Positions 20,275-64,000 of a DNA stretch of 64,000 bases are shown one piece after another (within the stretch, counting starts at the first letter, position 1; the number at the start of each line of letters is the position of its first letter). The stretch lies in IMG/VR virus record IMGVR_UViG_3300049489_001303, positions 32,001 to 96,000 of that record; one strand, written 5' to 3'. The notes under the pieces are model-generated. The model did not search any database and had not been told where the DNA came from. It saw only the letters and a program-made list of their open reading frames with translations. The stretch comes from a virus. The translations under genes were made by a program, and so were the position numbers.

Positions 20275-21144
20275 TTACTGGCGATTCGGGTCGAAGAGTT
20301 GATTCAGGCCTTCACGAATAAGGGGCCGGGGAGCCGGGTTCCCTGCCATACGGGTGTCCGGCTGGGCTTTAATCGTGGCGTTTCCACCGCGGATCTGCGG
20401 AGCCTGATCCATGTTCACAGTGGCCAAGGGGCTGTTTGCAGGCAGTGGGTCGTTACCCTCATCAATACCGTTAACAACGGCTGACTGCTTCAACAGCTCA
20501 ATCATGATCTCAGTCTCAGCTGCGCCCTTCAGGAATTCTTCCTGGAGTTCACTGGCGATTTTGTCTTCAGCCTCTTTGTAGCCACTTTCGTACTCTTCAG
20601 CGAGTTTCTCGAGAACCGGCATCAGGTTTTCCTGCTGGGCGAATTTCACGAGATCCTCTGGGGAGAGAGCTTCAGAAGCAGCCGCCAGTTTCTCAGCGCC
20701 GGACTGGAGATACTCTTCGTACTCGGCCTGTTTCTGCATGTCGCTGTTAGCGGGGGCGTGGCCCTGCTCCAGGCTATCGAGATATTCCGCGGCTTTCTGA
20801 ATACCAGCTTCGATACCGGCGTTGTAGCCGATACGGGTGGCTTCTTCCACGTCGCTTTCACTGTAGCCACCAGCAGCCGAAGCTACCTTGGCCATTTCAC
20901 CTTCGTAAGAACCGAAGCGGGTGATGATAGCATCGGCCATCGCCTGACCCATCATGGAGGCATGGGCGAGCTCAGCCTGCTTCTCGGCGCCGGAGAGTTC
21001 CGCGGCGATCTTCAGGAGATCATCGACCGCGTTATTCTGCGTGGCGGGCTGAGTATTCGTTACTTGAGGTGCCGGGGCGCTCGCTGTCTTTACGCTGCCC
21101 GTGCGTTCCTGTTCAACCTGATTCAGAATAGTTTGTAAATCCAT
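20275..21144 (-). CDS. Prohead core/scaffold protein
   Basis: Acidic helical protein with about 11 K-x-A motifs; GAGAGG SD before ATG 21144. Confidence 0.6.
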   Translation of the reverse strand: MDLQTILNQVEQERTGSVKTASAPAPQVTNTQPATQNNAVDDLLKIAAELSGAEKQAELAHASMMGQAMADAIITRFGSYEGEMAKVASAAGGYSESDVEEATRIGYNAGIEAGIQKAAEYLDSLEQGHAPANSDMQKQAEYEEYLQSGAEKLAAASEALSPEDLVKFAQQENLMPVLEKLAEEYESGYKEAEDKIASELQEEFLKGAAETEIMIELLKQSAVVNGIDEGNDPLPANSPLATVNMDQAPQIRGGNATIKAQPDTRMAGNPAPRPLIREGLNQLFDPNRQ

Positions 21145-21218
21145 CTTGTTTTTCCTCTCCGTCAGAGTGTTACGCACCTAATCATAGGGTGCGAGTTATA
21201 GTTCAACAACACAAAAAA

Positions 21219-23741: not shown

Positions 23742-24416
23742 TTACCTCCAGCTTCCGCCGCCGTGAGCCAGCGCTTTTTTAATGGCCGTCTCAGCAGTAG
23801 CCAGGCCTTCAATTGTTCTGTAGTCGATCGCGCCACCCATCATAATAGCGTTCCTCAGGAAAGACAACACGGCGTGTGGGTCCGTACTGAGGGTGGGCGC
23901 AAACCGGGACATCGTGGCGTAGAGCTTCTCCAGGTCGCCGGGGTGCTCTGTCTCATAGCGCTTGAGAGAGGGCTCAGTTTCCAGAAGGCGCTGGAGAATA
24001 GCCACCCGTGCTTTACGGTGTACGGTCATATCCTTGATGTTGTTGTGGGCCGCTACCATTCCACCGATGCCGGCGTTGGTAAGCTCAGCACCTACGGCGC
24101 CTGCAAAACCACCCGTGAGGCCCATGAGCATTCCACGTCCAGCAGCCTGGCCCAGACCCATTTGGGGGTTAGAATCGGTTGGACGGTGAGCAGCCTCTTT
24201 GGCCATAAGTCGGAACTCGTTAAGGGCCAGAAGATGTGCGTATTTCCCAGTATAACGTTCCATGAGTTTCTCCTCCTCATCTTTGATCTTGTCTTTAGTG
24301 CCGGACACTGAGGCTCCCACGCCGGCAACACCGGTGGCCGTTACCACTTTAGAACGCAGAGAGCTCTTTGCTCCCGCATTCCCGACACCCTTAACAGCTT
24401 TTTCCCAGATACTCAT
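23742..24416 (-). CDS. Putative internal/ejection protein with Gly zipper
   Basis: KEAA, GLTGGFAGAVG. Confidence 0.6.
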   Translation of the reverse strand: MSIWEKAVKGVGNAGAKSSLRSKVVTATGVAGVGASVSGTKDKIKDEEEKLMERYTGKYAHLLALNEFRLMAKEAAHRPTDSNPQMGLGQAAGRGMLMGLTGGFAGAVGAELTNAGIGGMVAAHNNIKDMTVHRKARVAILQRLLETEPSLKRYETEHPGDLEKLYATMSRFAPTLSTDPHAVLSFLRNAIMMGGAIDYRTIEGLATAETAIKKALAHGGGSWR

Positions 24417-25264
24417 CAGCCCACCTTCGGTGCCATTTTTACGGCATTTTCAATACCCACCGCCAACCTCTGAACAGTCTCTCTGTCGGCCCTGGCAGTC
24501 TTTACAAGATTAAGTATATCGCGGCATTCCGGATCCTGTACAGAAACATGATACTCGATAACGTGCGCCACCTTCTCCGGGTCGCCCAACAGCCCTGCGG
24601 ACATATCCATGCTGTTGTAGTGGCGCAGCATCTTCAGCTCGGGAAGCACATCTGCACCCAAAGCCGCCACGGCGTTCTTCTCGAAGTTGTCTACAGCCAT
24701 CTTGCCGACGTAAGTTACGCGCATGAGCTGTGCCGCCTTTTCCAGCTTATCTCCCCAGGCAATCTCAGCCTGACGCTGCTGATCCCGCATGATTTCACCA
24801 GCACGCTTGAACATGGCTTTGAGCTCAACCGGATGTACATCCGGACCCACAGCACGTTCCACGCCGATGTGCACCGTTTCAGAGGCGGTCTTTGTCAGTG
24901 GGGCTTGTTTCATGCTCCCGTAGTAGTCGAGGGCGCGGTCGTAGGACTCGTCAGAGGCTACCTTGCCGAGACCGGACGTGTCGGCCTGAGCCAAGCCTCC
25001 CAGTTGAGAAATGACCTGCTCGGGATCCCCGACGGTGAAATTGAACATCCTGTCCGGAGCGCCCTCCGAGGCGGCCTTACCGAACATGTTCTCGAAGACG
25101 GCCACATTGGACAGACGCACCAGTGTACGGATACCTTCGGGGTTAAGCCCGTTATGCTGGGCCAACTTGAGAGCGAGGTCATTAACGCTTTGAGCCCCAC
25201 CCGAAGAGGTGTGTGTGTTACCGATCTCCTGAGCTGCGCTTTCAAACTGTTGTCTATTCCACAT
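24416..25264 (-). CDS. Head-associated hypothetical protein
   Basis: About 9 K-x-A motifs (KVAS, KTAS, KMA). Confidence 0.65.
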   Translation of the reverse strand: MWNRQQFESAAQEIGNTHTSSGGAQSVNDLALKLAQHNGLNPEGIRTLVRLSNVAVFENMFGKAASEGAPDRMFNFTVGDPEQVISQLGGLAQADTSGLGKVASDESYDRALDYYGSMKQAPLTKTASETVHIGVERAVGPDVHPVELKAMFKRAGEIMRDQQRQAEIAWGDKLEKAAQLMRVTYVGKMAVDNFEKNAVAALGADVLPELKMLRHYNSMDMSAGLLGDPEKVAHVIEYHVSVQDPECRDILNLVKTARADRETVQRLAVGIENAVKMAPKVG

Positions 25265-29724: not shown

Positions 29725-30309
29725 TTAATATCTCACCGGGCCCGGTTCCCCACCATGCTGTTCCGGGTAAATAGTGTTACCGGCACCAGTAAGATGCCCG
29801 ACACCTGTACCAATAGCGCCACCGATCTGGCCCCCGGCCATCCCACCACCGATAGCACCCAGAAGACCCAGCGGCCCGAAGGCAGCCAAGCTGAGAGCAC
29901 TGCCACCGAGGCTCTCTCCCAGGCGCTTGGCTTTATCACCCTCGGCATCCCCGGCAATGCTGCCCGCTTCATAGGCCGGAAGGCCGTAGAAGAGCGCCTT
30001 GTTAAGGAGCCCGGGTGCTTTGAGTCCTTCACGAATCAGTCCACCTTCGCTGAGGGCTTTGCCACCTTTCAGTTCGTCATAGAACTGGCGAGGTTTACCG
30101 ATCATAAAATTCTTAACGCTGCTGCCAACATCTTTGAGTTTTACGTTTCGACCTTTTTGTATCAGGCCGCTTATGGCATCGCCTATGGCGTTGAGGCCTT
30201 TACCCATGACTGCGCTACCGCCGGGAACACGCAAGGCCACCTTCTCGATACCGTAGCGGTCATATGCTGAATCTTGCCCCAGTTTGTAGAACATCTCAGT
30301 AACGGCCAT
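29725..30309 (-). CDS. Putative ejection protein with glycine zipper
   Basis: Start revised to 30309 (MAVTEMFYKLG..EKVA); C-terminal LGAIGGGMAGGQIGGAIGTGVG. Confidence 0.65.
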   Translation of the reverse strand: MAVTEMFYKLGQDSAYDRYGIEKVALRVPGGSAVMGKGLNAIGDAISGLIQKGRNVKLKDVGSSVKNFMIGKPRQFYDELKGGKALSEGGLIREGLKAPGLLNKALFYGLPAYEAGSIAGDAEGDKAKRLGESLGGSALSLAAFGPLGLLGAIGGGMAGGQIGGAIGTGVGHLTGAGNTIYPEQHGGEPGPVRY

Positions 30310-32098
30310 CTTCACCCTCTCCAAATTCAACACCGTAAGTATACGCCGGGACTGGATGTGTACCATGGATATTTGATTCTTCACCATATGCAGCGGCTTG
30401 CATAATGGATCTCTTGAGACCCTGGTGAGCCATTCGGGCAATCCAATCGGAATGTTTCTTGGGGGCGCTGGTGGCTGACATCATCACAAACTCAACCCCC
30501 GGAGCCCTCGGTGATACTATCACCTGATCTATACCTTTTTCGATCAGCTTGCGAGACACCTCGTGGGTTATATGCGTTCCAGCCGTGTAGCCTGGATATG
30601 CAATACCCAAGGTTTCTCCAATAGCTGCCTTGGTGGGCAACTGCTTGGTGTCCTCTCTGAGCACCTTCCTGAGAGCATTGTATGATACAGTGTCCCCCTT
30701 CAGAAAGTGGGGGGAGTTATCATCAGTGATCAACGCATGGCTCATTACACTCTTGGCCAGCAGCTCGAAGTGGCGGGGATCCATATTCATCCCCTGGCCC
30801 TTGTACAAATTATGCAGGGAGCTGACCATGTACCGTCTACCCTCATCCAGACCCTTCAATCGAGTGATGTCGGTGGGGCGAATGATACCTTCGCTGAGGC
30901 GGTCGCCCTTAGACACCTGAGCATCCTTCTTTACAAGGATGTCCAGCCCGGGTTCGATGTAGTGCCGTGTTTTTTCTACCGTAACAAAGTGGCCACCCTG
31001 CGGCGCCACCTCTACCTTCGTAACTTTGCCCTCAACTTCAGACAGGATAGCCCGGTTCTCAAAGTTCTCCGGCGTTTCGATAATCGCTCGGAAGCCTTTG
31101 ATCCCCTGAACCTGCTGTTTGTCAGACTTGGCCGTGTGACCGCCATGCTTGGCACTCAAAGCAAACTGTGTCAGTGGCTCCGCCATAGCCTGAGCCGAAC
31201 GGATACCCACATTGATACCTTTATGGTGTAAATTCCCCCGCTCGTCCAACCCCTGACAGTGCTTACAAACGCCGTCGGGCGCTTCACAGGTCATAGGAGA
31301 GCGCACCAGGATCCTGGCGCTCAGCTTGGCTATGGCCGGCTGATTGTTGGGGGTTATTAATGTATTATGTTTAAAGGAGTGAACTCCCCGGGCAAGGTAC
31401 CTGTCGATAACGTCCGGGGAAGAAGCATCCATCTCCAGGCCGTTGGTGGTTCCACAGTCATCCTCGGTGATAACCTGGTCGGACATATTGACAACCAGCT
31501 TCTTTGCCAGCTCGCCCGGCTCAGAAACAGAAGTCATACTGGCAATCTGGTCTTTCATGGATTGCCCGGTGGTCGCCCAATAATCAGCGGGTTTGAGGCC
31601 CTCCGAGTAAGTCTTCTCTACCAGCCATGGGATGGGATTGCCGTCAAAATCTCGTACGTAACCAACCCCACCGACGAGGTTGTTATAACCGACCATGTTT
31701 CCGCGGGCACCACTCTTGACCTGCAGGGTCAGCGACCCGGGATGCTTATCTGTGAGGTCCATCAGCGCCGTATGTGCCCCGATAGCGGCGTCCTTCCGCT
31801 TCTCATCTGTGTTGGCCGCCTTGAATTTTGCAATGTGCGGGGCCATCATCTTCTTACGCTTGGCATAGTCTGGAGTGATATCGTCCAGCCCTATGGTGAG
31901 ACCCTCAAGAGTAGCTATGCGATCACCCTCGTGCTTAATCTTTTCAATAGATTCAGCATAGGCTTCGGGATTCTGGTGAGCGTATGTCATCATGCTCTTC
32001 TTGAAAGCTGACTTTGTTACAGGCCCCCTGAGCTTGTGCTCTTCAGGCAGGTGCTGATTGATCAGATAGCGTCCGTAGGTTTCAGACTTTTCAGCCAT
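30296..32098 (-). CDS. rpoC: DNA-directed RNA polymerase, beta' C-terminal subunit
   Basis: SGARG, bridge helix, EDDCGT, VRSPMTC..C..C, G..SAQAMAEPLTQ..H trigger loop, RHFELL; likely start ATG 32098. Confidence 0.9.
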   Translation of the reverse strand: MAEKSETYGRYLINQHLPEEHKLRGPVTKSAFKKSMMTYAHQNPEAYAESIEKIKHEGDRIATLEGLTIGLDDITPDYAKRKKMMAPHIAKFKAANTDEKRKDAAIGAHTALMDLTDKHPGSLTLQVKSGARGNMVGYNNLVGGVGYVRDFDGNPIPWLVEKTYSEGLKPADYWATTGQSMKDQIASMTSVSEPGELAKKLVVNMSDQVITEDDCGTTNGLEMDASSPDVIDRYLARGVHSFKHNTLITPNNQPAIAKLSARILVRSPMTCEAPDGVCKHCQGLDERGNLHHKGINVGIRSAQAMAEPLTQFALSAKHGGHTAKSDKQQVQGIKGFRAIIETPENFENRAILSEVEGKVTKVEVAPQGGHFVTVEKTRHYIEPGLDILVKKDAQVSKGDRLSEGIIRPTDITRLKGLDEGRRYMVSSLHNLYKGQGMNMDPRHFELLAKSVMSHALITDDNSPHFLKGDTVSYNALRKVLREDTKQLPTKAAIGETLGIAYPGYTAGTHITHEVSRKLIEKGIDQVIVSPRAPGVEFVMMSATSAPKKHSDWIARMAHQGLKRSIMQAAAYGEESNIHGTHPVPAYTYGVEFGEGEDGRY

Positions 32099-33515
32099 TG
32101 CTGCGCCCTCGGAAGGTATCGTAGTGGAGACCCTGACCCATAGCACTTACCGCGGTAGACCAGCTGACCGGAGAATTCAGACGCTGCTCAGACGCTGTTT
32201 GACCTTCAGTGCTATTATCGCTGTCTCTACGCGGACCCGGCGCTACCATCTTCTGCATGGCACCTACCAGATCTTGCACAGCTTCGGTATCCCGGGAAGG
32301 TTCATTCTCAGCAGAGACTCCGGCGATGTCCAGACCCATTTTTTGAAACGCAGCTTCGTACCCAAGCTGATAAGCTGATTTTTCCATTGAGGTGCCTCTC
32401 TGCAATAACCACTTGTCCCCGTGAGTTCTGAATATAGTATAGCTCTCATTGGAGGATTCGCGCTTGAATTTTACAGTGTCATCCGTGACCTTCTCTACCA
32501 GGATAGGCTCTTTAACAACGATCTGTACAGTGCCTTTACCGTATCCCTTACCTATCTGCTGCGGCCCCGCGGCCCCGAAATTCATAGCATAGTGTGATGT
32601 ATGTGTCGGAGTCCTGACTGCCAGAAGTTTCTCCCCCGCGGCAGGCAACTTCGCTTTAGGGATAGCCCAGGAGTGCGCATAGGAGGTTCCCGGGTCTACC
32701 AGGCGAAGGTCCCAGTGTAGTCCAGCCTTGTCGGCGTGATGTTCCTGGATAACCAGCGTCCATGTCTGCCCTGTACCTTTGGCCGGAAGCGCGTACATCC
32801 TTCTGGACCGCGGTACCCCCGGAGCGAACTCTTTCTCTTTCAGGATCCTTGCTACGTCGGCGTGATGGGGCTCGAAGTTGCGGAGTTCCCGTTCAGTCAG
32901 TGGCACAGCTACCCGGCCAGTCTCGCTGTTGAGGGAATATTCAGCCCTCAGCGCCCCCATGTTGTGGAACGTGGAGGTGTCGAGCCGTATCTGGTTCGGC
33001 TTTGGGGGCTTCAACACCAGCGGCCCCTTGGCCAGCGGCTTCAAGGTGGCTTCCACAATAGCCCGGACTTTGTCTGTGGGCATCTTCCTGTGCAGATCCC
33101 CGCGCACATGAAACCCGCGCCCACCCGAGTACGTTATCCGGGTGTCTGAAATCTCAGGAACAGTCCCCAGCGCCTGGGCCACCTGCTGAGTCACGCGTTT
33201 CGTCTCATCAAAAGAAACGTCCTTGCCCGGATCTATATCCACCCAGGCTGTCCGTGTGTTCCTCCCTATTGATGGATGGAACTCAGAGTAACGCCGATCG
33301 GTGTACCAAGCCAAATCCTGGGGGTTACTGGTATCACCCTTGGCATCCAGAATCTTGATAGGCTTCCCATCGGCGGCGTTGCGGCGCATGATGAGATTAT
33401 TGTCCCCACGATCCATCACTGCCAGCAGGGGCCTGTTCTGAACCTGTGACAGAATGGCTTCACGTACATGTGGGTCTGAGTAGTACTCAGCGATATCGTG
33501 TTTGGACAACGCCAT
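32091..33515 (-). CDS. LigD-like primase-polymerase (AEP) fused to a LigD 3'-phosphoesterase domain, no ligase domain
   Basis: AEP motifs WVDIDP, YSGGRGFHV, RLD, R.EYSL; PE motifs IQEH, HWDLRL, SWAIPK, LAVRT..H...Y, YG.G.V. Confidence 0.85.
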   Translation of the reverse strand: MALSKHDIAEYYSDPHVREAILSQVQNRPLLAVMDRGDNNLIMRRNAADGKPIKILDAKGDTSNPQDLAWYTDRRYSEFHPSIGRNTRTAWVDIDPGKDVSFDETKRVTQQVAQALGTVPEISDTRITYSGGRGFHVRGDLHRKMPTDKVRAIVEATLKPLAKGPLVLKPPKPNQIRLDTSTFHNMGALRAEYSLNSETGRVAVPLTERELRNFEPHHADVARILKEKEFAPGVPRSRRMYALPAKGTGQTWTLVIQEHHADKAGLHWDLRLVDPGTSYAHSWAIPKAKLPAAGEKLLAVRTPTHTSHYAMNFGAAGPQQIGKGYGKGTVQIVVKEPILVEKVTDDTVKFKRESSNESYTIFRTHGDKWLLQRGTSMEKSAYQLGYEAAFQKMGLDIAGVSAENEPSRDTEAVQDLVGAMQKMVAPGPRRDSDNSTEGQTASEQRLNSPVSWSTAVSAMGQGLHYDTFRGRSNG

Positions 33516-36500
33516 CAGTCTTCACCGGTGATACGCACATGAGTTCCCATGTCTATCTTACCTTCACGGTAGGCCTTAGCAGCTTCCCCCTTGTTCTTGA
33601 AAGTCTTTACGGGGCCATGTTTATCCTCGTTAGAGGCATGAGCTATTCCCATGATAGCTTCGTGGCCGGGGAAGGCATATAAGTCGGACTTGTTCTTGTC
33701 CCCATAGAGCAGCTTGCCCATGGTGAGGCCTTTGACCTCTTCCACAGCTTTGGCGCCGACGGGGACGTGAATCATCATTGTATCACCGTCGTAATCAGAA
33801 TTGGTACCCGATTCAACGAAAGGACTGATACGTATGGTTTTCCCGGGTGCAATCTTCGGGTATGCTCCCACCAAGCTGTAGCGGTGGAGCGTAGGGGCAC
33901 GATTCATCAACACCGGCCGCTCAGCCATCTCCTTCAAAAGGATCTGCTTAGCGGCGTGATGATGGGACTTGACCATTTCTTTGGCTTCAAGCGCGGGATA
34001 GCCATTGGCTACAAGACCCTTCACTATGAAATTGGCATACATCTCCCAGAGCATCGATTCAGGCAGACCGATCTCGTTCATACTCAAGGTGTTGTCCGGG
34101 ACGATTGTACCGCGGCCGGCGAGGTCCTGTCTCCGCTTCATAATCTTGGAGTTGAAGAAGCCTTCCTTGGGAGTATTCTCACCTGAGATGTACGTCAGGA
34201 AGCCCTTGTGTTCTCGAGCTTTGGATTTGGATGATATGGGATCATCCGTGCCGTATACAGCCCCAACAGCTTGCTGCAGTGCTGGGCGGAGTTTCTTCTC
34301 CTCGGAGGGCAGGAGGCCAGACTTCTTGAGTTCTTTGAACTGCTTATTCGTGTAGATCAGATCTCTGTACAACGGGTTGATATCCCCGTACATGATCTCT
34401 TGATTACCGCGACCTGGAATAACGGGGCGCATGACCGGAGGCACAACAGGCACTACGCTTATCGTGTAGGCCTTATCCGGAGACAACTTCATCTTCTGCA
34501 AAGCGTGAATGTACTTCAGCTGCTTGACCTCATCGTCCAGAGAGGTGGCCGACTTGGTCTTCATACTGGCCCGGATCTCTTTTTCCTTCTTAACCAGGTC
34601 AAGCTTGCGAAGCTGGTCCTGAATGTGGCGGCCACCCTTTTCTTTGAGAACGTCATCCAGTTCGGTGCCGGTCATCCCGAGCAACCGACGGACGGGCTCC
34701 TTGAAAATAGGGTTCACCACTGGCTCCACCAGCTTGATATGCCCCCAATTGGTCCCTGAGAGTCCGCCCGTAACAGCGGGGTCGAACAGACCACCGGTCT
34801 CGGGGGCGAAGTTCTTGGCTTTAATCAGGGTAGGTTCTTTGATCTCCCCCATCGACATCTCCATGACATCGGCATCGGTGAGAGGTGATGCGCTGAGCAC
34901 GCTCTTATCCCGGGTGACTTTGACTCCAGCACCAGTCAGCATATGCATGAGCTTATCATAAGCGAAAGGCGCCTTAACCGGCGGCGTCGGGTAGCCCAAC
35001 TGAACCGCTCTCCAGTACTCATCGTTCTTCTGGCTTTTAAGTGTCGCAGCTTCCTGCAGAACGTTACGTGCATTGTGGGCTACCAGAGCATCAAACTCCA
35101 TCTTACCATAGGCCTTCGAGCTCTCGGAACCACCCTTGATGGGCTGCTGATTTACGTCGTAACCACCTTCAGTACCGCGGCCACTGAAATTGGACTCAGT
35201 GGTCTTCATGAGCTTAAGGATGTACTGCCTACCCACAAACACTTTGGGGATAGTCTTCCCCGAGCGCGGGTCAAACATATCCTCTTTGTCTTTGATATCG
35301 TGCTTTTTGAGAAGATCCTTGGCCCACTGCACATTGTCACGGCCCGTCAGGTTCTCCACTACGATGGGCTTGCCAGTCTTCTCGACGACCTTGCCCACTG
35401 CGTTCTCTATAATCTGGGAAGGGTTGGCGCGGCTGACAACGCCGGCGGACGTCAAGATGACATCCACGGTGTTACCCGCCTCATCCTTGAGCATCTGGTC
35501 ATCCGGAACTATCTCGGAAACAACCCCTTTACCACCATACCTGTTGGCTAATTTATCCCCGACTGATACAGGTTCCCTGGTTTTAATCGTAATGGCGACA
35601 CGCTTAGGGGTCTTCACCACGTCGATAACTTCGCCCTCGTGCTCATGATCCCAGAGCTGCATCTGCTCACGGTAAGGCTTCACCAGTGATTTATGGAGCC
35701 GCCCCAGCATCAGGTCGTCGGAAGTCAGGGTGGCTTTACGCAGACCGGCTACCAGCGGGTCGCCCGGCTTAACGATGGTTCCCGGTTTGATAAGACCATC
35801 GTCTGTAAGCTTGCTATACTGATCAGCCGTGTACTTGTGTCCGTAGTAGGACCGGTGATGTGCGGCGTGCAAAGACAGGTCGGCGTCCCGGGGAATCACG
35901 ATCTTGTACATGCGCTCAGAGGTCAGCTTCTTGGCGGCACCCTCACTGACAACGATAGCGTCATTGGAGTTGGCACCGTAGTAGGGCATGTAGGCTACAG
36001 ACAAATTCTTACCCAGAGCCATCCGCTGATCTTTGGTGAAGTTTGACTCTGTGAGCTGCGTCTTCGGGGTGACATCGTCACCCACCTGGACGCGGGGGGT
36101 CTGAGTTAAGTGGGTCTTGGACGCCAAGGGGAAGTGCGTCATGTAAGGCACCTTCACAACGTCATCGTCCTTCTTGGCTGTCTTTTCATGCGCTTTATGC
36201 GCCCCGGCTTTGTGCGGCTTGATGTGAATATGGCTGCCGTCAATGTGCACCACTTTACCGTGTATGGGGGAGCGAGCATTCGTGTGCCAGGCCAGCTCCT
36301 CTTCCATCGGTCGGCCATTGGGGCCCATAACCTGCACATACGGAGCCTCTCTGTCCACCAGCCCCAGAGCCTGGGTCTGCATCTTGGAGCCCATCACCGA
36401 TCGGTTCCCCTGCAGAGACTCGATGAAGGGTATCAGGTTAGTGGTCGGGCCGTAGGTGTATGACGTGTGCGGCATCTGATACTTAACCTTCGAGGCATGC

Positions 36501-37900
36501 ACATGGCGAATCTGGCCATCCTGCAGGGCATCAACCATGCCCTTCAGCTCCTGATTGGGGAACGCCACAATCTCATCCTGCATGGCGCCGGCACGGACAG
36601 CCCCCAGCTTACCCGTCTTCACGTCGATAACCGGGACGTAGATATTGTTGTCCTTGTCCTTGGAAACACCCAGAGCCGCACGGAGGTCAACACCAGCACG
36701 GAAGGTGTCTGGGGTTCGGAAAGGGTCCAGTGCGCCGATGTGGGTGGGGTGCTTCTGCCGGGCTTCCATGGGGATAGCCCGATCGGTACCGATGCCACCC
36801 TCTCCCATAGCAGTCACGCGCACCGCGGAGTCCCAGAGGTCCATGGGATTCGTCTGTGTTGGGACAGTCACCAGCTGTGAGCTGTTGATAAAGCGGAGGA
36901 TGCCCCCGGTGAAAGGCCCCGCCGGCAGAGCCTTGCGGAGCTCGGGAGCTGTTTCCATTTTGAGAATAGCTTTACGCCCGACATCACGAGCATCCAGCTT
37001 GATACGCTCTTTGAAAAAGTCATCCGGCCCGTAAATGCCCTTGAAGTCCAGGTTGTCGCGGTCATCGGGATCTGCCGAGTTACGGTAGATGTCGATCAGT
37101 TTCTTGGAAGAGTCGAGAAGAGCTTCCGGAGTAACCGACTTATGTTCCTTGCCCAGAGTTTTAGAGTTAACGTGCGGATCCATACCTTGCGTCGCATAAC
37201 GTGCAAAAATCTCCTTAGCCATAGCCTCGGTATCAGTAGACTCCCGGTGGTATTCCGGAACCATCTTCTTGTACAGAGCGGCGACAGCCTTGTCCTGTTT
37301 ATGTCCTGTTTCTTTCTCATTCTGGGCGGCCAATCGGTCTCCCCAGGCACGCGAAATGTCCTGTTGAGAAACCCCACCAGCGCGGAGGATCGGATACAAC
37401 GGAATCTTGGCCGAGGCATACTCGAGCTGAGGTGTACCCTTGACCGGATCCATCACGATATTGAAGTTGGAACCTGTGCGAGTGTTGAAGTTGGACTCCA
37501 GAACACCATTGGCCCGCTTGCGGGTATACACCCCGGCCTTGGGGCGCACCTGGTTGGAGATGGAATATTCGTTACCCCCCACGATGATGGTGTGGCGATC
37601 AGTAAACCACGGGATCCGGGCCAGAGTGAAGTTGGGCACCTTGTCCACAACCTTACCTTCAGCGTCCTTCATGATCAGCGTTCCGCGGACGTTCTCATAG
37701 AGGGTGTCCCCCTGGAGGATAGCTGCCTTCTGCTCCTCGGGGCTGTAGTCCTTCTCCTGATAGTGCAGGTCCTGAACCTCAAGGGACTTCGAGCGGGACT
37801 TGATAGGAAAGGACTCCTCCAACCCCTCAACAACCTTCTTACGAATCTGCTCCCGGCGTTTCTCCGGATGGTCAATTATCCTTGTCAGTTCTTCGGTCAT
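33515..37900 (-). CDS. DNA-directed RNA polymerase, beta subunit fused to the beta' N-terminal half
   Basis: beta motifs: GNEY, MGSKMQTQA, GDKLANRYGGKGVV, GKME. beta' motifs: GHIKL, NRAPTLHR, catalytic NSDYDGD. GGAGG SD. Confidence 0.93.
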   Translation of the reverse strand: MTEELTRIIDHPEKRREQIRKKVVEGLEESFPIKSRSKSLEVQDLHYQEKDYSPEEQKAAILQGDTLYENVRGTLIMKDAEGKVVDKVPNFTLARIPWFTDRHTIIVGGNEYSISNQVRPKAGVYTRKRANGVLESNFNTRTGSNFNIVMDPVKGTPQLEYASAKIPLYPILRAGGVSQQDISRAWGDRLAAQNEKETGHKQDKAVAALYKKMVPEYHRESTDTEAMAKEIFARYATQGMDPHVNSKTLGKEHKSVTPEALLDSSKKLIDIYRNSADPDDRDNLDFKGIYGPDDFFKERIKLDARDVGRKAILKMETAPELRKALPAGPFTGGILRFINSSQLVTVPTQTNPMDLWDSAVRVTAMGEGGIGTDRAIPMEARQKHPTHIGALDPFRTPDTFRAGVDLRAALGVSKDKDNNIYVPVIDVKTGKLGAVRAGAMQDEIVAFPNQELKGMVDALQDGQIRHVHASKVKYQMPHTSYTYGPTTNLIPFIESLQGNRSVMGSKMQTQALGLVDREAPYVQVMGPNGRPMEEELAWHTNARSPIHGKVVHIDGSHIHIKPHKAGAHKAHEKTAKKDDDVVKVPYMTHFPLASKTHLTQTPRVQVGDDVTPKTQLTESNFTKDQRMALGKNLSVAYMPYYGANSNDAIVVSEGAAKKLTSERMYKIVIPRDADLSLHAAHHRSYYGHKYTADQYSKLTDDGLIKPGTIVKPGDPLVAGLRKATLTSDDLMLGRLHKSLVKPYREQMQLWDHEHEGEVIDVVKTPKRVAITIKTREPVSVGDKLANRYGGKGVVSEIVPDDQMLKDEAGNTVDVILTSAGVVSRANPSQIIENAVGKVVEKTGKPIVVENLTGRDNVQWAKDLLKKHDIKDKEDMFDPRSGKTIPKVFVGRQYILKLMKTTESNFSGRGTEGGYDVNQQPIKGGSESSKAYGKMEFDALVAHNARNVLQEAATLKSQKNDEYWRAVQLGYPTPPVKAPFAYDKLMHMLTGAGVKVTRDKSVLSASPLTDADVMEMSMGEIKEPTLIKAKNFAPETGGLFDPAVTGGLSGTNWGHIKLVEPVVNPIFKEPVRRLLGMTGTELDDVLKEKGGRHIQDQLRKLDLVKKEKEIRASMKTKSATSLDDEVKQLKYIHALQKMKLSPDKAYTISVVPVVPPVMRPVIPGRGNQEIMYGDINPLYRDLIYTNKQFKELKKSGLLPSEEKKLRPALQQAVGAVYGTDDPISSKSKAREHKGFLTYISGENTPKEGFFNSKIMKRRQDLAGRGTIVPDNTLSMNEIGLPESMLWEMYANFIVKGLVANGYPALEAKEMVKSHHHAAKQILLKEMAERPVLMNRAPTLHRYSLVGAYPKIAPGKTIRISPFVESGTNSDYDGDTMMIHVPVGAKAVEEVKGLTMGKLLYGDKNKSDLYAFPGHEAIMGIAHASNEDKHGPVKTFKNKGEAAKAYREGKIDMGTHVRITGED

Positions 37901-37921
37901 GCATTCCTCCGCGGCACACTA

Positions 37922-37950
37922 AGTATAGAGCCTGGGGCCGTAGATGTAAA
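37922..37950 (-). promoter_or_regulatory. sigma70-like promoter of the RNAP operon
   Basis: TTTACA-N17-TATACT. Confidence 0.65.
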
Positions 37951-38036
37951 ACTAAAACAAGAGGCGGGATTTGGTATAAGATAGTAGACAGCACCCACAG
38001 GATAATCTTGTGGCGGCAACCCTACGGAGGTGTACC

Positions 38037-38201
38037 ATGTGTACACTGATGCTTCTCGCCGCTTTGGCGGCACCCGTTCCCGCACAGTCCCCTGCGCTCG
38101 AAACCCCCTCCGCCCAGGTGGAAACAGCGAAGATGAAACTTCGCAGCAACCCCATGTTCTGGCCCGCCTGGATGTTTCGGCCCTACACCCTTGAGGTGTG
38201 A
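38037..38201 (+). CDS. Small protein with signal-peptide-like N-terminus (54 aa)
   Basis: GGAGG SD; MCTLMLLAALAAPVPAQ.... Confidence 0.5.
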   Translation: MCTLMLLAALAAPVPAQSPALETPSAQVETAKMKLRSNPMFWPAWMFRPYTLEV

Positions 38202-38329
38202 AGCCGCTCGCCTCCTGGATGTAAAACAGCCGGTCACCTGTGTGATAGGCTGTTAACACCCAGGAGGTACTTACATGAAATTTGAGCCTCTGACACCTGC
38301 TATCCCGCCCATCAAACGGTGATAGCTTT

Positions 38330-38360
38330 GAAAGCCTGGAGCAATCCGGGCTTTCTTTTT
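38330..38360 (+). terminator. Intrinsic terminator
   Basis: GAAAGCCTGGA-GCAA-TCCGGGCTTTC-TTTTT. Confidence 0.8.
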
Positions 38361-38362
38361 GC

Positions 38363-38914
38363 TCAGTCTTTTTTGAAAGCCTGTTCGACGTTGGGAGGGT
38401 AGATCTGATTTCTTTTGCGTTCTTCCATCAGTCTCTTTATGCGGCGAGCCTCGTCGGGATCCACTTCCATCCATTCCACATGGACAAAGCGAGCCCCCTC
38501 GGTGGGGAAGGGTTCTTTGGAAACGATGGTGCAGTCCCCCTTGAGGTACTTGTCCATGACAGCCTTATATTCTTTGGCCTGGGTGTGGGGGCATTCGTAG
38601 TCGCCATCTTTGACAGGCAGGATGGCATGACCTGAAGCCAACGCATTCTGGCAGCGGGCGCAGGCTTCCCAGTCACGCCATATACAGAACACTTTGCTGT
38701 ACGCCTGATAGGAGCTCTCAACAGAAGCCTTCTCGGGGGGAGTATCTTTCCGAATATGGGGGTTAACCATAGTATCCAGATCGGTTTCCACCGAGAACAT
38801 GGGCCCCAGTTCCAGGGTGTCACCCCCCGGCCCACCCTGGGAAGGCGCGGGTTGGCTGCGGGCGTTATTGGCAATCGCCAGATAGTTGAAGCCTGAGGAT
38901 GTGGGTTGTGGCAT
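38363..38914 (-). CDS. Hypothetical protein (C..C/C.H)
   Basis: 183 aa, directly downstream of the portal gene. Confidence 0.65.
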   Translation of the reverse strand: MPQPTSSGFNYLAIANNARSQPAPSQGGPGGDTLELGPMFSVETDLDTMVNPHIRKDTPPEKASVESSYQAYSKVFCIWRDWEACARCQNALASGHAILPVKDGDYECPHTQAKEYKAVMDKYLKGDCTIVSKEPFPTEGARFVHVEWMEVDPDEARRIKRLMEERKRNQIYPPNVEQAFKKD

Positions 38915-38922
38915 GGTTTATC

Positions 38923-40683
38923 TCACCCCTGTTGCGGCTGACCCGGCCCCTTAGCCTGCTGCTTAAGAGCTTGAGTCTGCTGCTGCTGTGCTGTTTCCAA
39001 CCGTTGAACAACCACAGCATACATGACAAGGTCCTCCGTTTGCAACTGTTTAAGGCGCGATTTGCGTTCACCCTGTTCAAGACCGAGCAACTGTTGAACA
39101 ACCTGGTCGGCCTGAGAGATGACCTGCTGCTGGTTGTAACCCGAGGGACTCTGCTGCGCTTCGGCGTCAACGCGGATCTGCTCAACCATACTGTTCTGGA
39201 TGTCCCTGACAGCACGCTGAGTCTCAATTTCAGAGCGGGATCTATCCAGGGTTTCCTGCTGAATTTTATCACGCTCGTTGTCCAGATCCAGCGTCAGGAG
39301 CTCAGCCATGGTCTGGTCAGAGATCACCTTGACACCGCTCTGATAGCCGCCCTGCCACAGATTGGCCAGAATCTGCTTGGTGGAGAGGTCGTCCGTCATG
39401 CGGAACTTCGCCATACCCACTTCAAGCTTCTCCCACCCCAGAAACGTAGCGCATTTGTCGTCCACCCACTGCAGGAGGTCCAGCAGGTCATTCACATGGG
39501 TTTCGAGTTGGTTCTCAATGAGGCGTAGGGTAGCTTCCATTCCAGAGCCCGTCAGCCCACCATAGATGAATTCTTGCGGGATACCCAAAGCCGAAATGAT
39601 AGCCTTCTCCGCTTCTTGAATTTCACCCAGGGTAAGCAGTGCGCGGCCTTGACCACCAATCTGCACAACGCCAACAGGCACCGGAGCAAACATCATATGC
39701 AGCGGGTCTTTGCGCCACGCAGCCATGTTGGAAACCATGTTGTCTTTCCACTTGGAAAGATTCATCTGGGTTACCGGGTCGCCCACGCCGGAGGCCTGCG
39801 CCGGGTGTATCACGCGGAAAGGCACCAGGTGGTCCAGGGCGATCGCGGTGTTTGCCTTACGCAGAATCGCCGTGTAGTGGAACAGCGACATGACCGAAAG
39901 CAGCGGGGGAAGGCCCCACTGGGGATTGATACCGGCTGGGCCGCCCATCTTCATATGGAAGACGACACCCTTGGAAAACTTGAACTTTTTGTTGGTCTTG
40001 ACGGCTTCCAGGAAACCAATGGGGAGTGTGTCAATCAGGAACTTGTGTCCACTGTTGATGCGCGTGATTATGTCTCTCGGGATGGTGTAGTAGTAGACGG
40101 ACTCCCCCGTGATAGGGTTGTATTCAATATCCATCTGCTTCGGATCCCACCGAATGAAATTGACGTGCTTGGGAGAGGTCAGCTTCTTGTCAATGATGTT
40201 GTCTTTACCTACCCGGCTCTTCTTATTGCAGCTCGGGCAGTCAAAGATGAACTTCAGTTCCTGAATGTTGAACGTGTACGTCAGCGTTTCGATATTGGTC
40301 AGGGTCTGACAGTGGGGGCACCTCAAAAACCGGATGAACGGTTGGTACATGGTTAAGAAGGCGTTCCCGTACACATACTTGTCGAGAGTCGCTTTGATCA
40401 ACAATTCCCGGGCACGCAGTGTCTTTTCCAGAAGGTCTTTATGCTGGCGACGAAGCGACACGTTGCTTGTGTCGTAGGTCACTTCTGTGATAGGATACTC
40501 ACCAAACTTACGGAGGGCTGAGTAGATTTGAGGGCTATTGTAAAAGAGGTACTCGCACCACTTGAAGAGATCCTTCAGCTTTTTTGGTGTGAACGACTGC
40601 GTGAAATCCTGATAGGGGCTGGGGTGGGTGGCAATATTCTGATTAGTCCCCAGCAAACTGTATGTCTCATTTATAGCCATCAA
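38923..40683 (-). CDS. Portal protein
   Basis: DKYVYGNAF, WGLPPL, ALGIPQEFIYGG, helical C-terminus; CPHC/CPSC zinc insert. Confidence 0.75.
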   Translation of the reverse strand: MMAINETYSLLGTNQNIATHPSPYQDFTQSFTPKKLKDLFKWCEYLFYNSPQIYSALRKFGEYPITEVTYDTSNVSLRRQHKDLLEKTLRARELLIKATLDKYVYGNAFLTMYQPFIRFLRCPHCQTLTNIETLTYTFNIQELKFIFDCPSCNKKSRVGKDNIIDKKLTSPKHVNFIRWDPKQMDIEYNPITGESVYYYTIPRDIITRINSGHKFLIDTLPIGFLEAVKTNKKFKFSKGVVFHMKMGGPAGINPQWGLPPLLSVMSLFHYTAILRKANTAIALDHLVPFRVIHPAQASGVGDPVTQMNLSKWKDNMVSNMAAWRKDPLHMMFAPVPVGVVQIGGQGRALLTLGEIQEAEKAIISALGIPQEFIYGGLTGSGMEATLRLIENQLETHVNDLLDLLQWVDDKCATFLGWEKLEVGMAKFRMTDDLSTKQILANLWQGGYQSGVKVISDQTMAELLTLDLDNERDKIQQETLDRSRSEIETQRAVRDIQNSMVEQIRVDAEAQQSPSGYNQQQVISQADQVVQQLLGLEQGERKSRLKQLQTEDLVMYAVVVQRLETAQQQQTQALKQQAKGPGQPQQG

Positions 40684-49261: not shown

Positions 49262-50071
49262 ATGGCTATTATCCCGTCGCAATTCGTAAGGGACCACGCT
49301 CCCTGGTCTATAAGTAAGGCTGAGGTAGCTCGGCAATGCCCCAAAAAGTTCTTCCTGCAGTACGTTGACAAGGTAAAGACAGGGCAGGGCTCTAACTCCG
49401 CCGCACGTATCGGCAAGGCGGTGCATACTGCCATGGAATACATATTGAAAGGGAACCCAGTGGCCCAGGCCTTCAGGCTGGCTGCCAGTGTGCACGAGTT
49501 ACTGAGTGATGAAATCAACACCATTAACGACTACATCCCGGCGGCTAAGAAGTTCATGGCTCACTACAAGAACTACTGCGTGCAGCATAGAGCACAGCCC
49601 CCGGAAGTGGAGCTTAAGCTGGCTGTCGATATCAACGGTAAACCCGTTAGGTTTTTCGACAACGCCAACTGTTTCCTCCGCGGAGTTATAGACTTGGCCG
49701 TTCAGTTCAAAGGACGGTCTGACGTTCTGATCATAGACCACAAAACTGGTGCTGAAAAAGAGTTCGACCACTTCAAACATCAGTTCGCGGCCTACCAGCT
49801 TCTTATCAAGGCCAGATACCCGGCCCTGCAGGCCGCATACGTAGGTCTCAACTACCTCGGAACGGACAAGGTAGTACTTTTACCTACACCATTTTCTTTA
49901 AAAGAGATCGATCCGCTGATGGATAGCGTAGTACAATTTCTGAACGACGCTACAGCGGACGCTGACAACTTCGAAATGACTCGGTGCGGCCCCCTTTGCA
50001 ATTGGTGTGAATATAAAGCGTCAGGGGATTGCCCGATTTACCAGGTGACTAATGGCAAAACAGAAGAATGA
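49262..50071 (+). CDS. PD-(D/E)XK exonuclease (Cas4/AddB-like)
   Basis: S.S....CP, G..VH, E, G.ID, IIDHKTG, Q...Y, C.WC.....C. Confidence 0.85.
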   Translation: MAIIPSQFVRDHAPWSISKAEVARQCPKKFFLQYVDKVKTGQGSNSAARIGKAVHTAMEYILKGNPVAQAFRLAASVHELLSDEINTINDYIPAAKKFMAHYKNYCVQHRAQPPEVELKLAVDINGKPVRFFDNANCFLRGVIDLAVQFKGRSDVLIIDHKTGAEKEFDHFKHQFAAYQLLIKARYPALQAAYVGLNYLGTDKVVLLPTPFSLKEIDPLMDSVVQFLNDATADADNFEMTRCGPLCNWCEYKASGDCPIYQVTNGKTEE

Positions 50072-53000
50072 TTTTTCGCTGACTCGCTCCGCCCTGAAGT
50101 CTCTTTGGTCGTTTATAGGAATAGCACAATGGGAACAGCTTCTTAAAGAACATAAGCGCCCTCACGGTTTTCAACGGGTAAGCAACACTAAGTTGCGAGG
50201 GCTCTGCCTTAACCCGGATCACCATGATACCTCCCCGTCGTACTTTATCGACGTGGAAAAGGGGTACGCCAAGTGCTATGGCTCATCCTGTGAAGCCTAT
50301 GAAAGCGACCCGGTAAGACTCCTGTCCAGCATAATGGGCAAGACGATACCAGAGACTCTCCGTTTCATCGTAAACACTTACAAGCCCCCGTTTATTTCTT
50401 CTAAAGCTGCCGAGAAATTCGAGAAGTTCCAGCGTCATCAGGAGATGAAATCCCAGATCTTCCTTGCCTCCCAGCAACTCATGCTGCAGGCGCTGGCAGA
50501 TATGGAACACCCGGACAACGCCTGGGCCCGGCCGTCGCTGGAATGGCTGATCAACACTCGAAAATTACCTGCAGACTACCTTTATGCGCTCCCTGTAGCC
50601 CTTCTCCCGGACATCCATGCTCTGCAGAGCGTCCTTATACAGGTCTATGCCCTGAAGAAAGAAGAATGGCTGAGTATCCCCACTATCCACCGGGGGCCTG
50701 AGCCGTTTGACCACAGCGGCAACGCTGTGAAGTATCTGGCCGATGCCATTAAGAAGGGTCTCACCGGGGCTGTCATGTTCCCCTTGCACTCTTCCCCCCA
50801 GGACATCTGCCGCTTCAAGCTCAGATCTCCGGACGTTAACATCGGTGACCCCAAGCTGATTTATATTGTTGACGACCTGCAAGATGAGCAGCTGGGCCTC
50901 TACGGCCTTGGGTGGGGACCTTATGCGGCTATGCTCAGAAAGCATGAAAGCACCCGGGAAGTAGCTATCACTGAGGGGGAGTTTGATGCCCTCAGCATCA
51001 TGGCTCATTGTGTCACCCATAAAATAGAGCCCCCCATACCGGTACTGTCTGTAGGTGGTACTGGCGGAGCCAAAGAGATCGAGGCTGTTCTCGACAGTGT
51101 AGATGCCTCCAAGATCTACATGATCGGTGACGCCCCGGATAAGTCAGGTAATGAGGTGATTCAGACCTGGCTTAAGTCCTGCACGAAGATCCCCATCCAG
51201 GTATTCACTGGCTGGGAAGATCTGTCTCCAGCTAAGGACCTGGACGAAGCCGTCAACATGCAATCGGTGGGTATCGAGAAGGTTCTGGACACTATCTTCA
51301 ACCGTAGAGAAGACACCTACACTTCGGTGTGGCGTTGGCTCTACGACTTGACCTGCCCCCAACTGGACCTACTCAAAGAGGACGATGTACGCGGTAAAAT
51401 AGACGTCGTCTCCGGCTTCAGTGGTGTCATCAACAACGCCATCGAACGCCGGCAGTACACTGACGCCATTGCCGAGCATTATGACCTGAATCCCAGCCTT
51501 GTCTACCGGGAAGCCACCACCAAGAACGACACTCCTATGGGGTTTGTTGTGCGGATAGCTGAGGCTATTCTGGACATCATGACCGTTGTAGGCACCCAGG
51601 TCGTGGGTGGTGGCCGTGAGCTTGTGCTATTCAACCGTGGCAGAGAAACCTTTCACACCGTAACACTGGACAGTGAACGCTCCATTATTCAGGAGTTGGC
51701 TCCGGTAACCGGTGTCCTCCACAAGTTCATCGAAGAGCATGTGGGCTGGCCTCCCTTCCTGGAGCCGCTGGACGACGCGGACCCCCTCACTTACAAGAAG
51801 AACAGCGAAGCAATTCGTTCTTACACCAAGGACGCAATTTTGTATTTAGCGAGAGGTACAATGGACATAAATGCAGGCCGGAAATACCGGCAAGGTTACT
51901 ATCGAATAGAACGCCATGATGGCGAAGTTGTCGAGGTTGTTGTCTGCGGAACTTCCGTGTTCCACCTGATCCGGGATGGGGTAGATGTTCAGTACGAACT
52001 CCTTCCCGGGCCGGTGTATAAGGACATCATCTTTGACGTGGGCTTCACCAACAGCGCAGATACCCGTCCGTGGTTTCCGGGCGGACTGAACGTTCCCATG
52101 CTGAACAAAGCCTCCAAGATGGACCTCAAGAGGCTCTATCTGGATCTCGTCAAGGTCTACACTGAAGGTTGGTCCTTCAAAGACCACGACATCACTTGCC
52201 AGATGCTGGCGGCCTCGGTGATGTGCTTTCCCATCATGGATGCCTTCTTCCGTCCTATCGTACTGTTCCTGACGGGCGACTCCAACTCTGGTAAAACCAG
52301 CTTCGTGTCCTCTATCTCCCCTATCGGATACGCGGGCCTGAGGCTCCTGTGGTGCTCTCAGGGTAACGACGGCTACACTGCCGCCGCCACCGCCCGTAAC
52401 ATGGACGGGGACAGCCGTCTGATGGTCCTGGATGAGTTTGAGCGCAATGATGACTCCAAGGGTGCTCACATTCAGGCCATTCTCAGTATGACACGCGGTC
52501 TCGTCTCCGGACACGCCACCCGCGTGTTGAGCAACATGGGTGGCACCAGCAGTACCGGTGCCGGAAGCACCACAACAGACCAGTACTTCCGTCTGCCAGT
52601 GGTGTTCGCCGGTATTCAGGGCGCCGAGCAGCTTCAGGATCTCAATCGACTGCTCATCGTCACCACCCAGAGAAAACTGTTCCACACCAACCCCCAGCAA
52701 TCCGTTTACGCCGCGTTCACCATCGAGCGCCTCGACGAAATGCAGGTGGAACTCAACGCTGGTATTTATGCCTACGCAGATGATCTCCGCACCATTTCTG
52801 AAGATCTGCGCAAGAACTATCACAAAATGTGCATCCGCCTCAACGTTCAGGCCGAAGAGCGTTGGGCCACAGGCCTCATGCCGGCGCTGGCGGTCATGAA
52901 GCTCATCGGTCTTGATTATGAAGCCTTCTTTCAGGCCTACGTAGAAGCCCATAAGTACACGATCAAGCGCGTTGAAACCACTACCGAGTCCCACGCAGCA

Positions 53001-63750: not shown

Positions 63751-64000
63751 GTTTCGAAGAAATAGATCCCACTGGATTTCCTGAGAATCTTCCCTTCATC
63801 ATAGACGACGTAACGCTGGCAACCACACTGAACACTTCCCTTAAGGGGCTCTGGAGTGTGCTGCACAACGTGAATGGACAATATCGCGTCTTCCCGCTGG
63901 ATAATGGTAAAGGCAAGATCCGAATAATCCACGCCCCGTCACCATTCATGAAATGGCTTTCCACAAATCTCAGGTACACCCTGCTGGAGCCCCTTCAGGA
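63738..64000 (+). CDS. Reverse transcriptase, retron-like N-terminus (partial)
   Basis: Not in the ORF track. Manual translation MHRVSF...LATTLNTSLKGLWSVLHNVNGQYRVFPLDNGKGKIRIIHAPSPFMKWLSTNLRYTLLEPLQ matches the Y..F.I.K..G..R.I.AP...LK..Q pattern of RT domains 0/1. GGAG SD. Confidence 0.65.
   Translation, partial: MHRVSFEEIDPTGFPENLPFIIDDVTLATTLNTSLKGLWSVLHNVNGQYRVFPLDNGKGKIRIIHAPSPFMKWLSTNLRYTLLEPLQ

Follow-up and report, generated by a model that had tools for sequence, protein, structure and literature searches.

Why would a phage encode a DNA end-processing enzyme between the genes for two parts of its RNA polymerase (RNAP)? The question is raised by a 64,000-nucleotide stretch of DNA, here called the window, that comprises bases 32001-96000 of the 170,144-bp IMG/VR virus record IMGVR_UViG_3300049489_001303, which is judged to be 95% complete. 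On the minus strand of the window, a gene for polymerase and 3′-phosphoesterase modules of the kind found in the repair protein LigD lies between the gene for a fused β and β′(N) subunit and the gene for β′(C). We call the middle protein AEP-PE, after its archaeo-eukaryotic primase-type polymerase (AEP) and phosphoesterase (PE) domains. An initial annotation of the window took AEP-PE to be an enzyme wedged between the RNAP subunits, and in respect of position it was right, but the protein is not simply wedged there. As judged by a profile of its C-terminal tail and by hhalign comparisons, the tail corresponds to a small resident protein of the RNAP operon, X, a copy of which has been fused to the enzyme, and this fusion suggests that end repair travels with the RNAP.

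A LigD-type polymerase and 3′-phosphoesterase in an RNAP operon

The three overlapping minus-strand genes first described for this locus are all present (Table 1), and the Pfam domains of the three open reading frames (ORFs) agree with the identities originally given to them. Only the start of β′(C) has moved, from the GTG at 32146 to the ATG at 32098, where alignment with relatives places it. Read directly, the RNAP/AEP-PE junction is TGATG at 33515, a 1-nt overlap, and the AEP-PE/β′(C) junction is ATGGCTGA at 32091-32098, an 8-nt overlap; the middle gene is translationally coupled to both RNAP genes. An ATGA at 37897-37900, with the Shine-Dalgarno sequence GGAGGAA upstream, precedes the RNAP gene. 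Sigma-70-like sites occur at chance level (10 seen versus 8.1 ± 2.7 expected), and intrinsic terminators are no more numerous than chance would give, so that the single promoter first described for the operon is at most putative. The large subunit, P0001, matches Rpb2 domain 6 (E = 3.7e-44), carries the catalytic motif NSDYDGD, and is 34.7% identical over its full length to gp206 of Salmonella phage Arash. A search of the genome found one multisubunit RNAP, with P0001 as the only Rpb2-type gene.

Within AEP-PE, residues 5-224 match LigD_Prim-Pol (PF21686; E = 7.9e-13; 49 bits against a cutoff of 27.4; profile positions 2-243 of 254), and the match to LigD 3′-phosphoesterase (PF13298) begins at residue 257 (E = 1e-8; 35.7 bits against a cutoff of 31.1). 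Among 42 aligned homologues that are 37-68% identical, the AEP motif residues D93, D95, S130, G131, G134, R177, and D179 are invariant. Motifs I (DxD), II (SGxGxH), and III (D) are all present, motif II reading S130-G131-G132-R133-G134-F135-H136. Also invariant are the PE active-site residues Q257, H259, H267, D269, R271, H305, and Y309, a set (His-His-Asp for metal, with Arg, His, Tyr, and Gln) that presumably maps onto the numbering of the Pseudomonas aeruginosa enzyme.

An AlphaFold (AF2) model of AEP-PE has a mean predicted local distance difference test (pLDDT) value of 85.9, with both domains above 90 and the last 100 residues poorly ordered. The closest Foldseek match of the AEP domain is the polymerase domain (PolDom) of Mycobacterium tuberculosis LigD (3pky; E = 7.6e-12), followed by mycobacterial Prim-PolC (6sa1; E = 2.6e-11; 5op0 was also matched). 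The Methanocella nonhomologous end joining (NHEJ) polymerase 5dmu and the P. aeruginosa LigD polymerase 2fao were found as well, the top four matches falling between E = 1e-11 and 1e-10, while the replicative primases PriS and Pri1 were matched only at E of about 1e-4. Residues 254-373 align with residues 5-117 of the 118-residue archaeal PE 3p4h (phmmer; E = 6.4e-9), which is also the Foldseek match of the PE domain at a template modeling (TM) score of 0.86, together with the Pseudomonas LigD PE 3n9b and with 3p43. Identity of AEP-PE to bacterial LigDs is 26-29%, with E values of about 1e-7. From these profiles, conserved residues, and modeled folds, we conclude that the middle gene encodes a LigD-type polymerase and 3′-phosphoesterase whose predicted catalytic centers are intact.

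The tail of AEP-PE as a fused copy of X

A hidden Markov model (HMM) built from residues 373-474 picks up stand-alone ORFs, about 100-180 aa long, between the two RNAP genes, often abutting β′(C), both in phages without AEP-PE and in phages with a separate AEP-PE gene. Fused tails (alignment A8) and stand-alone X proteins of other clades (alignment A7), with no sequences in common, were matched by hhalign at 98.5% (E = 3.2e-15; 81 columns). To place X among relatives we used a set of loci anchored on β′(C), 80 of 134 IMG/VR loci at 35-57% identity, which were recovered with an alignment as query (a single β′(C) sequence gave none). After iteration of the HMM, X was detected in 58 of the 80, all in the slot between the RNAP genes, with the exception of one weak paralogous match just downstream of β′(C) in loci L047 and L048. 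A profile search of 1.84 billion representatives returned X in 116 clusters, mostly of stand-alone proteins of ~100 aa that consist of X from end to end; fusions in that search were almost only with AEP-PE or PE. X is the constant resident of the slot, and the end-processing protein is a frequent, exchangeable occupant. We are highly confident of the identity of AEP-PE and of its fusion to X.

X is recognizable by the motifs aYxxGxxxALxKLG, PAGxLAxxL, and RLNRxTxWG. Its AF2 model is a mostly disordered chain of low pLDDT with three short helices, and it has no Pfam match and no usable ESM Atlas look-alike. Two identities for X were considered and set aside. The RNAP omega subunit profile (PF01192) has no match in the genome at E ≤ 10, and X is not a missing part of β′, because the β′(N) end and the β′(C) start, read by eye, abut at E. 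coli β′ residues of about 560-580. A complex prediction for the X tail with β′(C) (alignments A4 and A3) scored 0.00 in both runs, an outcome that gives no answer and counts neither way.

The fused proteins preserve a trace of their origin. In 18 of 22 distinct fused proteins an in-frame Met stands shortly before the first X motif, and in 8 of those a purine-rich, Shine-Dalgarno-like run lies upstream of it; in the window the residue is M377, with its ATG at 32387 and AGAGAGG 7 nt upstream by direct reading. This internal Met descends from the codon at which the ancestral X gene began. No second, free copy of X was found in the genome of the window phage, and free X may still be made from the internal start at 32387.

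Position and phylogeny of AEP-PE among related phages

Searches of 50,697 phage records with the operon (megablast) and with AEP-PE (tblastn) gave no match, and the more than 230 homologues of AEP-PE were found in metagenomic contigs of up to 185 kb. The initial annotation would have been refuted by absence of AEP-PE from this position in related phages, but wherever the gene was found it is there. In all eight AEP-PE-anchored IMG/VR loci a large RNAP gene lies directly upstream, and in six β′(C) lies directly downstream; in the remaining two, L009 and L011, the contig ends before β′(C). The arrangement recurs in each of the six contigs retrieved for homologues that are longer or more distant. 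Thus AEP-PE was in the RNAP slot in 14/14 enzyme-anchored contexts and was found nowhere else in them. In the 80 loci anchored on β′(C), AEP-PE is in the slot in 34: in 26 it is fused to X, and in 8 it is a gene of its own beside a separate X gene. A further 24 loci have X only, and in 22 neither was detected.

In a β′(C) tree rooted on Arash and Vibrio phage D69, the fused state forms one clade of 27 rows that includes the window (Shimodaira-Hasegawa approximate likelihood ratio test [SH-aLRT], 100). AEP-PE with a separate X forms a second, earlier-branching clade (SH-aLRT, 100), and X-only clades lie between the two. The fused clade is deep, with β′(C) identity down to 49%. Between the two AEP-PE clades, AEP-PE identity is 39%, versus about 37% predicted from the within-clade trend of AEP-PE against β′(C). 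Divergence of the enzyme thus tracks that of the RNAP, which fits old coinheritance with later losses, and transfer is also possible.

A modular family at the β′ split site

The phages in which the slot family occurs are uncultured, measure about 170-190 kb, and form a large clade. As its domain content suggests, AEP-PE is one variant of a modular nucleic acid end-processing family at the β′ split site. Its members carry multiple unrelated enzymatic domains per chain, and these vary among relatives; the window protein has two enzymatic domains and X. Longer relatives have the architectures AEP-GNAT-PE, AEP-P-loop-GNAT-PE, AEP-GNAT-HD-PE, AEP-NUDIX-PE, and AEP-P-loop-GNAT-SNF2 helicase-PE; others are PE-ATP-dependent ligase (P0239), PE-ligase-kinase-Peptidase C39, and P-loop-NUDIX-PE-ligase-kinase. 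The genomic context of the NUDIX, SNF2, and P0239 forms was checked, and all three occupy the same slot. The description of the system as ligase-less therefore needs to be narrowed: it is correct for the window protein and its genome, but the slot of one relative holds a PE with an ATP-dependent ligase, so that lack of a ligase is a variant of a lineage and not a rule. The PE of the ligase-bearing slot protein is 47% identical to the window protein family.

Stand-alone SNF2-family helicases also occur in the slot (L030, 4950-9542; L089, 6952-8427), and in other relatives such a helicase is fused to AEP-PE. They recall RapA, an SNF2 ATPase that binds bacterial RNAP, and by this analogy may hint that slot proteins are RNAP associated.

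Partners encoded elsewhere in the genome

The absence of Ku and of a ligase, originally noted for the window, extends to the whole record: at E ≤ 1 there is no match to Ku (PF02735) or to PF01068, PF01653, PF09414, PF09511, and PF01139, which cover ATP- and NAD-dependent DNA ligases, Rnl2- and Rnl1-type RNA ligases, and RtcB. A canonical Ku and ligase set elsewhere in the genome, which would have made AEP-PE part of ordinary NHEJ, was not found in this 95%-complete record.

The phage encodes a family A DNA polymerase of its own (Pol A; about 53560-56571 of the window) and, directly upstream, a 1,170-aa primase-like protein that matches phrog_47 (E = 4.8e-10) and, weakly, Toprim_2. Pol A, the primase-like gene, and two PD-(D/E)XK nucleases belong to a separate replication module on the other strand, and the genome also encodes an SNF2 helicase, a ParB-like protein, and two sigma-like factors. 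Because the phage has Pol A and a primase-like protein, AEP-PE is not an obvious replicative primase or polymerase, and we rejected that role as the principal one. Taken from the first possible start, the plus-strand frames of the primase-like gene (50052-53564) and Pol A (53407-56571) share about 150 nt. The start of Pol A, a protein of ~1,000 aa, has to be placed by hand, and gene calling by longest ORF drops the gene.

RNAP subunits, cultured relatives, and virions

The cultured relatives of this RNAP, which are distant at 33-35% identity, are those of Salmonella phage Arash and Vibrio phages D69, D148, and D181. In these phages the split RNAP comes after the portal gene, and other genes occupy the gap between the subunits. 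The order of portal, small gene, RNAP, and head genes is kept from Arash to the window phage, which fits coexpression and coassembly with heads. As first proposed, the operon of the window phage lies among head genes: besides the portal, a major capsid protein 42% identical to Arash gp226 and several homologues of Arash structural proteins are nearby. Pfam and PHROG scans of the head module proteins were empty, so that these assignments come from similarity to Arash.

Mass spectrometry of gradient-purified Arash particles gave the highest count, 3,516 spectra, to gp206, the β-β′(N) orthologue, and 1,210 spectra to gp216, the β′(C) orthologue, against 1,333 for the major capsid protein; a sigma-like factor and a helicase adjoining β′(C) were also detected (PMC10585845). 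Since its Arash orthologues are abundant in purified virions, a virion-borne RNAP is plausible for the window phage, and by analogy it is probably virion borne.

The β-β′(N) gene itself varies among relatives. In L046 (the same contig as L007), L079, L092, L042, L029, and L031 its frame is stop-free for 5.4-7.3 kb, compared with 4.4 kb here, and in-frame insertions of about 0.9-1.3 kb, seen by tblastn, are probably inteins. In Vibrio phages D181 and D148 a homing endonuclease is annotated within the gene.

What AEP-PE might do

The reading that we prefer, tentatively and at somewhat less than even chances, is that an end-healing enzyme is tethered to the RNAP and accompanies it into the next cell. 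The middle gene would be translated along with the RNAP subunits and the head genes, and X would serve as a tether between the enzyme and the RNAP, or between the enzyme and the packaging route that the RNAP takes, so that the enzyme would enter the next cell with the RNAP. There, PE would take off 3′-phosphates or 3′-ribonucleotides on incoming phage DNA, AEP would fill or extend 3′ ends at breaks, nicks, or termini, and sealing would fall to a host ligase in the window lineage and to a built-in ligase module in some relatives. Domain identities, intact active sites, the X fusion, the conserved position, and the lack of Ku and ligase are read from the sequence; to these the scheme would add tethering, packaging, substrate, and timing. 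Association of AEP-PE with the RNAP strikes us as evenly balanced, and its delivery by the virion as possible, if rather doubtful.

The domain make-up of the slot relatives resembles that of the polyvalent proteins of phages and conjugative elements. Like the transferred primases RP4 TraC1 and R64 Sog, those proteins are encoded alongside late or virion genes and reportedly enter the recipient cell together with the DNA, as the first to act there (Iyer et al. 2017, PMC5512222); we count this resemblance in favor of the preferred reading. A stronger form of the same idea, in which X would be a true subunit or docking factor of the injected RNAP, with an end polymerase and 3′-phosphoesterase covalently tethered to it and with helicase, kinase, NUDIX, GNAT, or ligase modules in its place in sister clades, is one that we consider unlikely.

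Several observations weigh against the preferred reading. Of the 80 related loci, 46 lack AEP-PE, and in L030, which lies inside the fused clade, it is replaced by the stand-alone SNF2 helicase, a DUF5662 protein, and a Gly-zipper protein, with a free X kept; the enzyme is therefore dispensable or exchangeable. The slot likewise holds unrelated cargo, such as Gly-zipper and DUF5662 proteins, so that position alone is weak evidence of a functional link. Arash, searched by tblastn against phage records, has neither AEP-PE nor a detectable X, and neither was detected in Vibrio phage D69; given these absences, AEP-PE is an accessory and not a core part of the RNAP. Motif II residue H136, a His in the window protein and in 27 of the 42 homologues, is a Tyr in the other 15. 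IMG/VR classes the record as linear and without end repeats. Finally, the 116 proteins of the Arash proteome include ribonucleotide reductase and ligases (PMC10585845), obvious nonstructural enzymes that mark the preparation as not clean.

Much of this variability would be expected if AEP-PE were an unpackaged intracellular accessory that acts late in infection on replicating or concatemeric DNA, filling gaps, trimming remnants of RNA primers, or repairing breaks made by host nucleases, and that owes its location only to the slot's tolerance of cargo and to strong late expression. We judge this somewhat unlikely. It accounts for slot cargo as varied as SNF2 helicases, DUF5662 and Gly-zipper proteins, and homing-endonuclease-like genes and for the many relatives without the enzyme. 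Prim-PolC, a gap-filling repair polymerase, is close behind the LigD PolDom in the fold comparison, and the ligase-bearing variants fit general break repair. However, this explanation leaves unaccounted for the covalent X fusion kept across a 27-row clade and the confinement of the enzyme to the slot in every enzyme-anchored context, and the phage already has Pol A and two nucleases in its replication module. The possibility that AEP-PE is selfish or neutral cargo, acquired horizontally at a recombination hot spot and joined to X by accidental loss of a stop codon, without a role tied to the RNAP, draws on the highly variable slot content and on the in-frame insertions and homing endonuclease genes of relatives' RNAP genes. 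It is very improbable in our estimation, since the catalytic residues of both domains are invariant among homologues as little as 37% identical, the fused state persists through a deep clade, and divergence of AEP-PE follows that of the RNAP.

A different role for the tether was also considered. LigD polymerase prefers ribonucleotides, and PE resects 3′-ribonucleotide tracts on primer-templates, so that both act at RNA/DNA junctions. If X were an RNAP subunit, PE might trim the 3′ end of a transcript and AEP extend it with deoxynucleoside triphosphates, priming or restarting replication with the RNAP in effect serving as primase. The fusion of the enzyme to an RNAP-operon protein and the RapA-like SNF2 modules fused to AEP-PE in some relatives would suit such a hand-over, but a separate primase-like gene stands beside Pol A, and the ligase-bearing slot variants are better suited to sealing breaks than to priming; we regard it as improbable.

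Neighboring genes and other features of the window

Table 1. Features of the RNAP operon and its upstream neighbors (window coordinates)
Feature	Coordinates	Strand	Description
P0001, fused β + β′(N) RNAP subunit	33515-37900	minus	1461 aa; Rpb2 domains 2, 3, 6 and Rpb1 domains 1, 2 (Pfam)
P0002, AEP-PE gene	32091-33515	minus	474 aa; LigD_Prim-Pol and LigD 3′-phosphoesterase (Pfam)
AEP domain of middle gene	32826-33515	minus	residues 1-230; PF21686
PE domain of middle gene	32397-32768	minus	residues 250-373; PF13298
X module of middle gene	32094-32396	minus	residues 374-474; tail HMM and hhalign
P0003, β′(C) ORF as first called	30296-32146	minus	616 aa; Rpb1 domain 5 (Pfam)
β′(C) from corrected start	30296-32098	minus	600 aa; Rpb1 domain 5, E = 9.4e-20
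Small 120-aa ORF	37897-38259	minus	stop overlaps RNAP start (ATGA); lineage specific, no assigned function
Conserved 183-aa gene	38363-38914	minus	upstream of RNAP operon; kept in 43/80 related loci
Portal gene	38923-40683	minus	31% identical to Arash gp204 portal, E = 1e-87; upstream of RNAP in 66/80 loci

The 120-aa ORF has no Pfam or PHROG match and no homologue among the 80 related loci, and Arash and Vibrio phage D69 have unrelated small ORFs at its position. The sole clear terminator-like structure near the RNAP operon is an 11-bp G+C-rich hairpin with flanking T/A runs at 38330-38355, within the 100 nt that separate the 183-aa gene from the small ORF. At the far end of the window, genes for a MoxR-type AAA ATPase (58564-59781) and a DUF2201 metallopeptidase/VWA protein (61598-63172) lie upstream of a reverse transcriptase gene (PF00078; E = 2e-15) on the plus strand at genome positions 95696-96844 (63696-64000 of the window and beyond), after which comes a 455-aa ORF.

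Packaging of the RNAP and AEP-PE had also been argued from a K-x-A motif in the large subunit and in the tail of AEP-PE. That argument is void. P0001, P0002, and P0003 contain 7, 1, and 6 copies versus 10.4, 2.7, and 4.1 expected, so that the motif is not enriched, and we rejected it as a packaging or cleavage mark on the operon proteins, where counts are at or below expectation. Three other minus-strand proteins (20275-21177, 24416-25264, and 60533-61528) are strongly enriched, with 12-13 copies each where 2-3 would be expected (Poisson P = 1e-5 to 1e-6). The motif may be genuine in some head region proteins, though not in the RNAP operon.

Relation to known systems

Full-text literature searches turned up no description of LigD-type modules in the RNAP operon of a phage, in agreement with the original view that the arrangement had no described precedent. 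The domains and the theme of polyvalent proteins are already known; what is new is the fixed link to a multisubunit RNAP operon, the X protein, and the fusion of AEP-PE to X. If the enzyme does ride with the RNAP, this would be the first NHEJ-type end processing physically coupled to a viral transcription machine and a new way to protect, circularize, or prime a genome at the onset of infection without Ku or a ligase of the phage's own. The slot would in that case amount to a naturally occurring collection of interchangeable "first-responder" modules (polymerase, phosphoesterase, ligase, SNF2 helicase, NUDIX, GNAT, and kinase), and if X is the docking factor of an injected RNAP, the transcription machine would bring an exchangeable repair or counterdefense toolkit to the incoming genome ahead of phage gene expression. 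X is a widespread small protein and a candidate for an unrecognized subunit or packaging adaptor of this RNAP lineage. On the plainest reading, these phages offer biochemists a compact, ligase-free and Ku-free polymerase-PE family of more than 230 members.

Bacterial NHEJ by LigD and Ku provides the closest parallel in enzymatic terms. LigD of M. tuberculosis (POL-PE-LIG) and of P. aeruginosa (PE-LIG-POL) shares both accessory domains with AEP-PE, catalytic residues included, and their folds are the nearest to AEP (3pky, 2fao) and similar to PE (3n9b). Here, however, there is no ligase domain in the chain and no Ku in the genome, and the gene lies in a phage RNAP operon, fused to X. The archaeal NHEJ polymerase and PE proteins (Methanocella paludicola 5dmu and 5dmp; Candidatus Korarchaeum PE 3p4h) are likewise minimal domains without a ligase in the chain, and Candidatus Korarchaeum 3p4h is the best PE match in both sequence and structure, but they are separate polypeptides with Ku and ligase encoded nearby, whereas AEP-PE is one chain in a genome without such partners. 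Mycobacterial Prim-PolC, which with LigC fills short gaps in excision repair, is likewise a Ku-independent AEP repair polymerase, but it carries no PE, and the dedicated ligase with which it acts has no counterpart in the window genome. The mycobacteriophages Corndog and Omega encode Ku and borrow host LigD to circularize their genomes. They too carry part of the NHEJ toolkit and let the host supply the rest, but the division is reversed: they contribute Ku and draw on the host for polymerase, PE, and ligase, whereas the window phage brings the polymerase and PE without Ku or ligase.

With respect to its setting, the locus has two further counterparts. Polyvalent proteins combine primase or Primpol, GNAT, kinase, helicase, and peptidase modules, the repertoire shown by the relatives of AEP-PE, but in the survey of these proteins Primpol was confined to Firmicutes elements, and neither a LigD PE nor a link to a multisubunit RNAP operon was described (PMC5512222). 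The virion RNAPs of the jumbo phages phiKZ and AR9 (PMC7598289) and the RNAP of Arash (PMC10585845) are phage encoded, with split β and β′ subunits like those of the window phage, and the Arash RNAP has the same position after the portal. Whereas the phiKZ, AR9, and Arash operons hold no known repair enzyme, the window phage has a single RNAP with sigma-like factors, in which β and β′(N) are fused, and encodes within its operon a LigD-type polymerase and phosphoesterase.

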